Origin: an uncultured Flavobacteriales bacterium
GTDB lineage: Bacteria; Bacteroidota; Bacteroidia; AKYH767-A; 2013-40CM-41-45
Assembly (NCBI GenBank): GCA_964544885.1
Contig: CAZJDX010000018.1
Location: 4,108-68,107 of the forward strand
Length of the DNA stretch: 64,000 nucleotides
Direction: 5' to 3'
Part shown: positions 57,093-61,638 of the stretch, piece after piece
Numbering within the stretch: the stretch's first letter is position 1
Layout of the letters: each line of letters starts with the position of its first letter
Made by a program: the position numbers and the translations under genes
The notes under the pieces: generated by a model
The model's database searches: none
The model's input: the letters and a program-made list of their open reading frames with translations, nothing else
Told to the model about the DNA's origin: nothing

Positions 57093-57287
57093 GATAAAGA
57101 TTTTAGACAAAGATAGAAAATTCGACTGAGCATGTCCATGCTGAGGTCTGAAAATTCAGAGTAAGGCAACACCTGGTTGACAAGGATTTAAAACCATAAT
57201 TCCACTGAATAAATTTAGCATTCAACCGGATTAAAACGGAACCTGCCATGAACAGATTCCGCCTTGAAATGCCAGATTACGCCAACA

Positions 57288-60174
57288 TCACTTCACACAT
57301 ACCATTTGTTTACTGTCAATAGTTTTTCCATCAGCTACTAAAGAGTACATATAAATTCCTGAACTCAGATCACTGGCAAACACATTCATTTCACCTTCAC
57401 CGCGGGTAGTAATTACGACGGACTTAAGAATTACACCTTTTGAAGTATAGAATATAACTTCTGCTTTCTTTACACTCTCCGGTATTTTATAACTGATCCG
57501 GGTACGTTCGCTAAATGGATTGGGATCATTCTGATTTAATATGATTGCATTTTCTGAAGTGAGTTCTACGTCAATAGAGTTCTTTTCTGAGCTCACCCTT
57601 TGAGATGTACCAGAACAACAGGAACTGACAGCATCCTGCAGTTGATCAATCTTAGCAAGAATCAAACTATCTCTTGAGGACAAGGAGTCAATGATGGCTT
57701 GTTGTTCTTTGATTGCCTGGGTGAGTAATGGAATGATTTCTATATAATTAAGGGTCTTAAACCGCTTTTCAGCAACTAATTCATTACCTAATGAGTCTAT
57801 TTCTGCTGGTGTAACCTGCTCAGCGACCAAATTTGGCAATATCCTTTCAACTTCCTGGGCGAGGAAGCCGAAATGAATGCCATCAGGCAAATTAAGCGAT
57901 GGGTTGTTTATTTTGTCATATTCATACACCTTAGGATTTAATGAATTAATTACTGCTGATGCAGTCCCGATTGGTTGAACATTCAATTTAAGACTTGAAT
58001 CTGATGTATTATGGACAACCGGCGTATATATGTCTCCATCAAAATGTGCAGCTAAAGCAAAACCACTGCCATTTACAATTAACCTTGCATCACCAGCATA
58101 TCCTGACAAACTTGGAATGGATGAATAACCCATCGTTACATGCTCATCCGCCCATACTGAAAGCATCTTATCGTCGCTTCCATTTCGAACTTCCATCGCA
58201 CGAGAGGGCATTCCTGAAGTAGTGGTACTAGTACTGTACGTTTTAACAATCAATGCAGCTTCCGGGTCATAACTGATTCCGATCCCTAATCGACCATCTT
58301 TGTTGGTTATGGCGGATCCAATTACGACATGACCATTATCCCTTGCTTGAAAATAATCATCGCCATTAGAATCTTGGATCAGGCATCCTATGGTTGAAAA
58401 AGTAGTTCCCAATCCTCCAATTTGAAATCTTGAAAATAAACCTGAAGATAGTCCAAGTCCGACGTAAGTTCCATTATCATACAAAATGCTGTTACAAACC
58501 TCATTTGAAGATGTATTATTCATTTTAACAAGCTGATTATTAGAAATTGTGCCTCCGCATTCCACTAAACCGCTGGTCGGAGAAATGCTTTCGTCTTCAA
58601 CTAAAATTACCTTGCCATTCGCGTCCACAGACAAAACTCCTTTAGTACCGGTAAATGCGCTTGAGTGAATGGTTGAGGCTGTAGTCAGATCTGTAAAAAT
58701 GAGTCCACTATTCCCTCCGGCGCTCGTTGGTGATGCGTCATTGCTATTTATCTCTAATTTTTCCCCTGGATTATTCTTGCTAATTCCCACGAATCCACTA
58801 CTGCCAGAATTCCATGGATCAATAAATAAATTTCCGGTTGAAGTTGTTTCGAAATCCGTAAACTTTCCACCGGTCAATGTTGCATCCGCAGTATGCGTGA
58901 GCCGGAGTTGCGGACCCGAAACGTGATCAGGATAATTTGAGCCCCCCCCCCCCGCTGGATGCATTATCAATCAGGTCTAATCTCCTCTTAGGAAGAATGG
59001 TAGAATTATTCCAACCTGTTCCGATTCCCATATTTCCTGATGCCGTCATTCTTGCAACTTCCAATCCGTCGTAGGTATTCTTTGCCACCGAAGAAGCTCC
59101 GGAATAGGTACCGGTGAAAATAAACTTCAACATGTCCGGTCCAAAAGCGGCATTGGTTGGATTATCACCCCAGTTAATCACCGCGCATCCTAAATCCGAT
59201 CCTTCATCTTTAATGCCCACATACATCTGATCGCTCTGTCGAACCATATGTGTACCTACTTCCATCCAGGTTCGATTACCAAGTGAAGCAATATTTATTC
59301 CTTCACCAAGATTCAACATGGCCAAGGGTGCAGAGATAGGATTGAATGTGTTACCATAACTGATACTTACCTTGGTCATATTTGATAAATTACCTGGACC
59401 ACCAACTCCATAGGTAATTCGCATTCGCTCAGTTAAAGTGCTTGGGTTTGATGAATGGGTAGCCGTAGAAAATAAAATGGGTGCATCCTCATATTGCCTC
59501 AACTCTGCAAATACTTTATCTCCTGGATGAGTGTGAATACCAACCTTAAATCCATCAGTTGGAGTAATATAATCTGTCAATCGATTTGTAAACTGTGCGA
59601 ACACATCTTCGTCTTCTGGAAATCTATTTAAATGAAATACAGATTGAGGATACCAATCACCGGTGCTATGAAAGTCATTCAGACCTAAATATCCATAAGG
59701 CGCCAACCTCTTCCAATGCATATTTGATGTAAAGAAATCCATATTGCCTCCGTCGCGATTCTGAATAGCTTTTAAATGTATATCATCCTTCTTTTCATAG
59801 CCATAAACCAAATTATTAGGATCAGGATTCATGATGTGGAATTTTTCAGTTTGAGTACCTTCATCAATAAACATCCTCCAAACGGCGCCATAATCTTGAC
59901 CTGTAGTTGTATGGAATGCCTCTGCGTAATGATAAGCATTGGATGGATACAATAATGGCACTCTGATATCCAATGCTGCCATAGGATCAAGATTGTTACC
60001 AACAAAATCTCCAATCCCAATAGCTGCTATATTATTATTGGCATCTGTTTCTCCAATTTTATCTGCAAAATTTGGTCCTGTGTTCACAAGAAATGGTTGA
60101 GAAAATGAAAGGTAGGAGTTCGAGATTAATAAAAGCACCAAAATGCAAAGACTAGTTAGGAATTTGTTCATCAT
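57288..60174 (-). pseudogene. Frameshifted (possibly phase-variable) fibre-like protein with peptidase S74 chaperone domain and T9SS sorting domain
   Basis: ORF 58927-60174 has the signal peptide and ORF 57288-58970 has S74 (SDSSLK...GFLAQEVE...LNYIEIIPLLTQAIKEQQ) plus the sorting domain (QNDPNPF...SGIYMYSLVADG). The two frames join at a G12 run; one G fewer gives a continuous 961-aa protein. Confidence 0.8.
58942..58953 (-). repeat. G12 homopolymer tract at the frameshift
   Basis: 12 consecutive C on the plus strand; I saw no other G/C run of this length in the window. Confidence 0.9.
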
Positions 60175-60192
60175 AATGTAATTTTTAAATTG

Positions 60193-61152
60193 TTAGTTAA
60201 TAAATTTATAAGCATAATTATCAATCCATATAATATACATTCCGCTTGACAAAATAGCTTTGTCAATAGAATTGAATCCTATATTTAGTTCCTTTGAAAC
60301 TATCAATCTACCGGCCATATCGAAAACACTCATTTTCCTATCAACATTTTGATCTAACAGAATAAGTAAATCATTCTCTCTGTTCACAACAGAAATAGCA
60401 CTGGGTCTTAAAATTACCGGAACTTCACTAGCCAATTCACACAAAGAAGAATCGGTACTTAGGCAAATCCTATCTAAGTAATAGTAACTACGAGGAGATG
60501 TGGAAGGATAAACACAAGATGTATTTAAACTATCCAATGTAAAAAAATTGCCTATCAATATATCTGTATATGCAGAATCAGCTATGAAGCTACCCCTAAT
60601 GTAACTCCAATTGGTTGTATCCGAAATTATTGAATCAATATAAAATTGAGAAATATTATCTACTAAACTTTTATTTGATGTGGTTAAAGTGTTTAAATAA
60701 GTTATTAATTTAATACCAAATCGGTCATTATAACATGGTGAAGAATTAGGACTGGATCCAGCAGAAATTAAAAATGAGACGTAGTACTTTTGTCCTATTA
60801 TCAAGGGTTGCAACATAGTTATTCCAATAATTTCTCTTACAGAGTCTCTCAAATGCAAATGGGATGTACCCACGCCCACGTAAGCACTATCCATGGTATT
60901 TGATGTAAATTGATAACCACCTAGATTCTGAGGTATACTCACATTCGAATTAGTCGCACATACGTGAAAATAATCTGGCGATAGCAACAAAGCTTTCCAA
61001 CCAATTGCGTGATGAACTTGATTAACAAAATCAGGGCACGAATCACGAATCTCAAAACTCGGATTGGGTACTAAATTAAGCTGCGCAACAGAGTTTAGTT
61101 GGGTGAACAGGCTTGTTAAGAAAATTAAAAACACTGAAATGGAAGGATTCAT
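60193..61152 (-). CDS. T9SS type A sorting domain protein (NLVPNPSFE-type N-terminal domain)
   Basis: Signal peptide, QLNLVPNPSFE...CP...SPDYF, REIIG, GQKYYVSF, YYYLDRICL, C-terminal VFDMAGR...SGMYIIW. Confidence 0.82.
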   Translation of the reverse strand: MNPSISVFLIFLTSLFTQLNSVAQLNLVPNPSFEIRDSCPDFVNQVHHAIGWKALLLSPDYFHVCATNSNVSIPQNLGGYQFTSNTMDSAYVGVGTSHLHLRDSVREIIGITMLQPLIIGQKYYVSFLISAGSSPNSSPCYNDRFGIKLITYLNTLTTSNKSLVDNISQFYIDSIISDTTNWSYIRGSFIADSAYTDILIGNFFTLDSLNTSCVYPSTSPRSYYYLDRICLSTDSSLCELASEVPVILRPSAISVVNRENDLLILLDQNVDRKMSVFDMAGRLIVSKELNIGFNSIDKAILSSGMYIIWIDNYAYKFIN

Positions 61153-61638
61153 GATGCCTTTTGAAAAGAAGAATTCCCGGCCAATGTAACTTTTATTTCT
61201 ACACCGCAAAATATTTTAACAGAAACCCTGAAAAATTTAACAAAGTCGGATTTAAGATGAGTGAATTCTACCGGATTTCTGATAAAATAGAAAATTATCA
61301 GCAGTATTCATAGTGTTGGAATATTATTCTGATTTAACAAGGCTGTTTGTCAACTAAATTCATTGAACTGCGCGATACAAATCCAACTCCATAAGAGTAT
61401 ATTTTTCAAACTTGTTCAGGAAAAAGCAGATCAAGGCTTCCTCTCCATTTAAAGAATTACAATTCATTTATGCGGGTTGAAAACTTCCTTTTGCTTGAAA
61501 CAGAGGAATGAGCAATTCAAAAACTGACTCTTATCTGACAATTAAACTCCCGGATAAATGTTACTTAAACCATAATAGTAAACAAGAAATCATGGTATAT
61601 TTGTCATTAACTGACATTCATCCCTAATCCCCGGTGTT

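Follow-up and report, generated by a model that had tools for sequence, protein, structure and literature searches.

We analysed a 64,000-nt stretch of DNA (hereafter the window, at its full length of 64 kb) from an uncultured wastewater Bacteroidia metagenome-assembled genome (MAG; 3.35 Mb, 82 contigs, 44% GC, 97.75% complete), whose host shares its GTDB family with 'Candidatus Pollutiaquabacter aromativorans'. The minus strand of the window carries a gene for a putative surface fibre with a C-terminal sorting domain (CTD) of the T9SS (type IX secretion system). The gene is split into two open reading frames (ORFs) at a run of twelve guanines (G12), the sole G/C run of at least 9 nt within the window. 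The fibre gene comprises the following features:

58927..60174, minus strand: 415-aa upstream ORF (N-terminal half of the fibre gene), with its stop 5 codons past the tract (LKLS, then stop)
60100..60174, minus strand: Sec signal peptide, aa 1-25, read from sequence, with predicted cleavage between SFS and QPF and an N-terminal Gln
58942-58953, minus strand (C12 on the plus strand): G12 homopolymer forming the Gly4 linker codons (genome coordinates C18:63049-63060)
57288..58941, minus strand: downstream frame of 546 codons, the C-terminal half of the fibre gene, with shaft, S74 chaperone, coiled coil and CTD
57825..58004, minus strand: Peptidase_S74 domain (predicted intramolecular chaperone), beginning at the Ser of the S-D-x3-K motif (TSDSSLK)
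57303..57524, minus strand: T9SS type A CTD, by profile match to TIGR04183

The upstream ORF begins with MMNKFLTSLCILVLLLISNSYLSFS, followed after the predicted cleavage site by QPF, and ends in NASSGGGGLKLS and a stop codon, while the downstream frame reads GGGGSNYPDHVSGPQLRL... and stops at 57288. The signal peptide was judged by eye from the sequence and not by a predictor program; the N-terminal Gln after cleavage fits the Q-rule of Bacteroidetes, as given in excerpts of PMC5837995. The downstream piece has no hydrophobic leader of its own, and both its listed TTG start (58970) and its NCBI ATG start (558 aa, P0045) are annotation artefacts. Replacement of the tract in silico gives a single ORF of 961 aa with G11 and of 962 aa with G14, and early stops with G10, G12 and G13. 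G12 is one base above the in-frame length, and G11 or G14 corresponds to an ON state, in which the predicted peptide LDLIDNASSGGGGSNYPDHVSGPQLR would span the junction; the predicted peptide LDLIDNASSGGGGLK is the C-terminus specific to the OFF state. A sequence-only reading of this locus had described the two-ORF layout, the fusion at G11 or G14 into one protein running from signal peptide to S74 to sorting domain, and the lack of a signal peptide in the downstream fragment. The layout is correct in every detail, and the other two points are borne out. Furthermore, the additional inactivating mutations that it had named as the mark of an ordinary pseudogene were looked for, and besides the tract no further stop or inactivating change is present in either half of the 961-codon gene.

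The same reading took the product for an exported T9SS fibre, which is supported by the Sec leader, the S74 domain and the CTD. Specifically, Peptidase_S74 (PF13884) matches the downstream half with 45.7 bits (cut-off 22, E 7.9e-12), and the NCBIfam profile for T9SS type A sorting, TIGR04183, with 24.7 bits, above its cut-off of 23; the Pfam profile for T9SS sorting, PF18962, scores 23.3 bits, under its cut-off of 27. Residues S727, D728 and K732 of the S-D-x3-K motif (TSDSSLK here) are invariant in 22 homologues, and the S74 domain is a putative auto-cleaving intramolecular chaperone with a catalytic Ser-Lys pair. PHROG tail-fibre families match residues 455-854 of P0043, an intact homologue described below. 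The best Foldseek matches are an endosialidase chaperone (3gw6), MyRF ICA (7dc3) and a T5 fibre (4uw8). The AlphaFold model of the full protein has a predicted local distance difference test score (pLDDT) of 51.8, and its S74 and CTD parts have scores of 60-83, with 60-82 for S74. The low whole-model value is expected, because a trimeric fibre was folded as a monomer, and only the S74 and CTD parts of the model were used. For the N-terminal 415 aa there is no matching family in Pfam, NCBIfam or PHROG, and a sequence search of the PDB with the fibre protein gave no match. The genome encodes the SprA translocon in an intact 2407-aa ORF (TIGR04189, 2653 bits) together with at least 150 CTD ORFs, and CTD genes make up roughly 10-15% of the genome. 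The neighbours of the fibre gene are housekeeping genes, and there is no prophage. The order of the last two domains is puzzling: the putatively self-cleaving S74 chaperone is followed on its C-terminal side by the T9SS sorting domain (P0043 residues 727-964; the same in the window gene), such that S74 cleavage in the periplasm, if it occurs, would strip the mature fibre of its export signal before transport; this architecture is widespread.

A search with the read-through protein retrieved homologues encoded by single ORFs, P0002 (964 aa, 59% identity, 99% coverage) and P0003 (955 aa, 51%), the genes of which both sit behind a small T9SS-CTD gene, the same as in the window. In a three-way protein alignment in the G11 frame, the junction is crossed gap-free (...RRLDLIDNASSGGGGSNYPDHVSGPQLRL vs ...RRLDLFDNAASGGAGTPYPDHVPGPQLRL). 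The 90% cluster of the downstream ORF contains P0043, an intact 964-aa protein from JGI metagenome 3300009868. The contig that encodes it (L009) has a gene order identical to that of the window and is 97-100% identical in DNA outside a variable cassette described below, and therefore belongs to the same species; the downstream half of the window gene is 99% identical to P0043 in protein sequence. Consistent with a single gene, alignment of the DNA of two intact homologues places exactly one surplus base in the window, within the tract, and no stand-alone homologue of about 415 aa of the upstream ORF was found among proteins of 228-726 aa. In addition, the fibre homologue is uninterrupted in all 18 of the 30 related genomes that carry one. 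Most same-genus species lack a close orthologue, and an alignment-based search of genome contigs for related loci gave no confirmed relative. By these sequence comparisons, the two ORFs are the halves of one gene.

Between the window and the intact copy on L009, the two halves of the fibre gene differ as follows (pS and pN, proportions of synonymous and non-synonymous differences):

Half downstream of the tract: pS 0.035, pN 0.0016, dN/dS 0.04
Half upstream of the tract: pS 0.76 (saturated), pN 0.156, dN/dS not computable

The values of the downstream half correspond to 2 non-synonymous and about 14 synonymous differences, which are small numbers. Judging from the low dN/dS of this half and its freedom from stops, the frameshift either arose recently or is reversible.

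The tract belongs to a small set of exceptionally long G/C runs in the genome. Runs of 5, 6, 7, 8, 9 and 10 nt number 947, 119, 15, 3, 1 and 0, a decay of about 7-fold per added base that extrapolates to about 0.01 expected runs of at least 11 nt, and five are seen (three of 11 nt and two of 12 nt). All five fall within T9SS-CTD genes or at their 5' ends; a single one is in frame, three are not, and the fifth probably is not either:

C16:3866-3876: C11 in a cargo gene of about 965 aa, after ATG plus 4 codons (MRKLAPPP, then RILCTLALFLLTINFSKA, then Q); out of frame, with C12 as the ON length
C19:51822-51832: C11, mid-gene in a 516-aa cargo gene; in frame
C19:53413-53423: C11, mid-gene in the tandem paralogue of the 516-aa cargo gene; out of frame, split into 200 + 329 aa
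C57:3506-3517: C12 in an 1178-aa cargo gene, after ATG plus 3 codons; probably out of frame, with C13 as the ON length
C18, window 58942-58953: G12 in the fibre gene, mid-gene at the Gly4 linker; out of frame, with G11 or G14 as the ON lengths

Codon use at the fibre tract is unusual as well. GGG is the rarest Gly codon in the genome (10.3%), none of the 47 other runs of at least four Gly in long ORFs is homopolymeric, and the P0043 allele writes the same SGGGGS without a homopolymer (AGC GGT GGA GGA GGA TCC). The C16 tract, which precedes the hydrophobic core of the signal peptide, has a counterpart in the same-genus genome G001, where the orthologue (970 aa, with CTD; C3:113529-113541, L020/L153) carries C13 in the corresponding position, likewise after ATG plus 4 codons. 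The flanks of these two tracts are only about 60-65% identical in DNA, and the C11 of C16 and the C13 of G001 are each one base off the in-frame C12. Tracts are also present in other genera, and in different families, of the order, at the 5' ends of SprB-repeat homologues (G005, G023) and a small CTD cargo gene (G021), and in the middle of cargo genes in G013 and G020. Such tracts are absent from about half of the relatives, and some relatives' tracts are intergenic or lie within regulator genes. Taken from sequence, the distribution, location, codon use and conservation of these runs point to a maintained class of tracts.

The tandem paralogues on C19 (genome C19:51260-54401) form an identity mosaic of 55-100%, suggestive of gene conversion, with 96-100% identity around the tracts, and a flank shorter by 2 nt on the 5' side of the tract splits one of them (AAATTGAA vs AAATTAAAAA). 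An exact look-up of the ON-state protein of this locus returned no record, and a protein-guided scan for the paralogues in the metagenome contig collection gave no match; the contigs reached through their nadD-like neighbour all stop in the paralogue repeat, ahead of the tracts.

Several other runs were encountered. In the MAG, a G9 run (genome C23:25535-25543) stops 4 nt short of the start codon (ATG) of an AraC-type regulator gene and might tune translation or promoter spacing. In same-genus genomes, a LuxR-type regulator ORF has a G20 run at its N-terminus (MQYPPPPPPHE...; G004:C4:1155481-1155500, L152), and a G11 run encodes the GGG of a methyltransferase-like ORF (ILAKGGGVLHI; G002:C296:1148-1158, L151); long tracts in the genus are therefore not confined to T9SS cargo. 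The family relative G018 (C2:86992-87173, L014) yields about 1,260 overlapping G11 hits in runs hundreds of bases long, which look like a sequencing or assembly artefact rather than biology.

Comparison of the window with L009 reveals a strain-variable cassette that has its 3' edge at or just past the G tract:

About 58870-61150 (compared with L009 4900-7290): strain-variable cassette of about 2.3 kb, with 58-83% DNA identity inside and 97-100% in the flanks
60193..61209, minus strand: small T9SS-CTD gene, with a probable start MNPSISVF at about 61152, ending 18 nt before the fibre gene

The stretch of low identity, from about 61150 to about 58920, takes in the N-terminal half of the fibre gene in its entirety and the small CTD gene from the end of its signal peptide onwards; the small CTD gene is syntenic in all relatives. 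Divergence falls from about 25% to near identity at the Gly4 codons, with 7 allele-specific differences in the roughly 85 nt beyond the tract. Because these differences run about 85 nt past the tract, the tract lies inside the window allele (allele A), at the 3' edge of the cassette. For the same reason we rejected two further origins of the frameshift, a scar at a recombination junction and a chimeric assembly of two strains. Synonymous sites between the cassette alleles are saturated and yet the proteins are about 77-80% identical, from which we take them to be old alleles co-maintained in one species.

A second copy of the small CTD gene lies elsewhere in the genome (C6:~100700-102730; L002 1459-2599) and represents a third allele, in which the signal peptide (MNPSISVFLIFLTSLFTQLNSVAQ) is unchanged. 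It is followed immediately by a fragment of 132 nt that matches codons 104-148 of the allele-B fibre gene at 96% identity and overlaps a histidine-kinase gene at the latter's 3' end. The fragment may be a remnant of, or a donor for, cassette exchange. A longer version of the truncated C6 copy is found in another sample as the Logan protein P0044 (162 aa).

We consider it probable that the fibre gene is a slipped-strand contingency locus, an ON/OFF switch sampled mostly in its OFF state, which would represent a known mechanism in a new setting. The predicted protein consists, in order, of a Sec leader, a strain-variable N-terminal domain of about 380 aa, the Gly4 linker, a tail-fibre-like shaft, the S74 domain, a coiled coil and, last, the sorting domain. 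The linker codons of this allele form an unbroken G run, of a length that slips in replication. Cells would flip between G11 or G14 (ON) and G10, G12 or G13 (OFF), the sampled population being mostly G12. In the OFF state, a leader-bearing fragment of 415 aa would reach the periplasm without shaft, chaperone or sorting domain, the remainder would stay untranslated, and no fibre would be displayed at the surface. The at least five tracts, all in T9SS cargo genes, could together give reversible combinatorial surface variation. The sequence-only reading had proposed a stochastic switch caught in the OFF state; one gene, a single extra G and a T9SS cargo stand, while within-population length variation, reversible switching and a benefit, for example in evading phages or grazers that use the fibre, are what we infer. 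That reading had not noted that the tract is one of a set or that it borders a strain-variable cassette.

Several observations weigh against such a switch. In the comparison with orthologues that the sequence-only reading had suggested, the orthologues prove to be intact single ORFs, and the G tract is missing at the locus in P0043, which is from the same species, in P0002 (GGC GGG GCT GGT) and in P0003. With a same-species relative and two distant homologues lacking it, the tract is young and could be accidental. There is also no length variation at the fibre locus, all three assemblies of the allele (the MAG and two per-run Logan assemblies) having G12, and the sister tracts of C16 and C57 have the same lengths in the Logan runs as in the MAG (G11 and C12). 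MutS1 and MutL are intact, hence no loss of mismatch repair would boost slippage, and we rejected such a loss as the source of hypermutable tracts. The C19 pair may share its tract by gene conversion rather than by independent maintenance. Finally, several Logan contigs end within 31 nt of tracts, which a drop in coverage explains as well as heterogeneity does; we rejected these ends as evidence of heterogeneity, the end points not fitting the branch points that length variants would produce in a k=31 graph.

Some of these points would suit an ordinary recent pseudogene, in which a chance homopolymer in the Gly4 linker slipped once and an accessory fibre gene is now decaying without any switch. 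The closest relative and the more distant homologues do without the tract, all three assemblies have the same OFF length, the gene is accessory in that most same-genus species have no close orthologue, and with at least 150 T9SS cargo genes one loss would cost little. However, 961 codons contain no second lesion, the downstream half keeps its 2 non-synonymous against about 14 synonymous differences to the intact copy, and a run of twelve G is physically liable to slip back. Chance, moreover, leaves unexplained both the location of five of five long G/C runs in T9SS cargo genes and the three consecutive copies of the rarest Gly codon. We therefore regard decay of the gene as rather unlikely.

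We judge it distinctly unlikely that the homopolymer was miscounted in sequencing or assembly, the true tract being G11 and the gene intact. No sequence is harder to count than a long G/C homopolymer, the out-of-frame states of three or four of the MAG's five long tracts and of the orthologous tract of G001 could reflect a systematic bias, and the breaks of several Logan contigs within a k-mer of tracts suggest poor reads there. Against this, the Logan assemblies of two runs, SRR10807626 (a 7.3-kb contig) and SRR10807893, each assembled alone by a pipeline different from that of the MAG, are 100% identical to the window and both have G12, and the C16 and C57 lengths are reproduced too. In addition, none of the 77 A/T runs of at least 9 nt in the genome splits a gene. 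The 910 N's in the MAG assembly suggest a scaffolded short-read assembly, a type in which indel consensus errors are presumably rare, and the C after the tract is retained, so that the usual Illumina substitution error after a homopolymer probably does not account for the frameshift. A random miscount is thus unlikely, although there may be a systematic bias at long G runs. A search of the metagenome contig collection with a variable-gap pattern on the tract flanks gave no match.

Recoding, in which a stable G12 would still give some full-length fibre by RNA polymerase slippage or a +1 ribosomal shift, is highly improbable: out-of-frame states do predominate among the tracts here and in G001, and the frames overlap by only 5 codons past the tract, but the site has no known signal (slippery heptamer, downstream structure or A/T run), bacterial transcriptional slippage is documented mainly for A/T runs, and the relative makes the protein without any tract.

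A broader picture can be put forward, though tentatively: the order may run a multi-locus, phase-variable set of T9SS cargo in which tracts are selected after the start codon or at linkers, the fibre tract being both switch and cassette boundary. Cassette swapping would then set which fibre is made, and slippage whether it is displayed. The standard positions would be just after the start codon, before the signal-peptide core, or at inter-domain linkers, and in nature the genes would usually rest with the tract out of frame.

For a few host-adapted pathogens, homopolymer slippage is a textbook route to phase variation, and surface variation in Bacteroidota is known mainly through invertible promoters. 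In environmental Bacteroidota, hundreds of surface proteins per genome are exported through T9SS, and to our knowledge within-population variation of this repertoire is essentially unstudied. Apart from a passing mention in one review, a search of the open-access literature for slipped-strand or homopolymeric phase variation together with T9SS or Flavobacterium found no paper that links the two. In print, the setting appears to be new: several loci per genome, in T9SS cargo of an uncultured environmental order of Bacteroidia, with mismatch repair intact.

Intragenic poly-G/C contingency loci are described in excerpts of reports on hmbR and hpuAB of Neisseria meningitidis (PMC3786947, PMC5084427) and on Campylobacter jejuni (PMC8355987). 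Like these, the fibre gene has an unbroken G/C run within an ORF that encodes a surface or exported protein, a one-base change toggles the frame, and several loci per genome are in mixed states. Unlike these, the host is an uncultured environmental member of the Bacteroidia rather than a host-adapted pathogen, the targets are T9SS cargo, and the switching is deduced; unlike in Campylobacter, mismatch repair is intact in the MAG. Excerpts of a study of the Gardnerella sialidase gene nanH3 describe a poly-C tract with experimentally shown length variation (bioRxiv 10.1101/2020.09.16.300947). The fibre gene resembles nanH3 in having a homopolymer in the coding region of an exported surface-protein gene, and differs in phylum, in export route and in that its length variation is proposed. 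Repeats in the signal-peptide region, as in Neisseria opa and pilC and in Haemophilus lic genes, are the classical design of a translational switch. The tracts of C16, C57, G001, G005 and G023 are of this design, lying between the start codon and the signal-peptide core, whereas the fibre tract is mid-gene at a domain linker, where the OFF state would still yield an exported fragment of 415 aa.

Invertible-promoter or shufflon variation is known for Bacteroides surface structures such as the B. fragilis capsule loci (PMC3090145). The fibre locus shares with these systems surface variation in Bacteroidota and the cassette-like replacement of alleles between strains; it differs in relying on homopolymer slippage, and no invertase or inverted repeats were seen at the fibre locus, where none were sought. 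With phage tail fibres and endosialidases (3gw6, 4uw8) and MyRF ICA (7dc3), the fibre protein shares the S74 domain with the invariant S-D-x3-K motif and the matches to tail-fibre PHROG families. Unlike phage fibres, it is chromosomal with no prophage and combines a Sec leader, a sorting domain placed after the chaperone and an N-terminal half that belongs to no known family.

The gain from this single locus is modest, a well-documented candidate rather than a demonstrated switch. If the tracts of this genome and its relatives do switch, populations of wastewater Bacteroidia would be mosaics of surface types, with a bearing on resistance to phages and grazers and on floc formation. The annotation of pseudogenes in MAGs would be affected as well, and split genes of this kind should not be counted as lost.

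A scan for sigma-70 promoters and terminators, which is ill-suited to Bacteroidota promoters, gave sites no more numerous than in shuffled sequence. At 57233-57261 on the minus strand, 30 nt past the stop codon of the fibre gene, a hairpin (CGGAATCTG-ttcatgg-CAGGTTCCG) is followed by TTTT; it is likely an intrinsic terminator, judging from its sequence, although it is absent from the list of the consensus scan.

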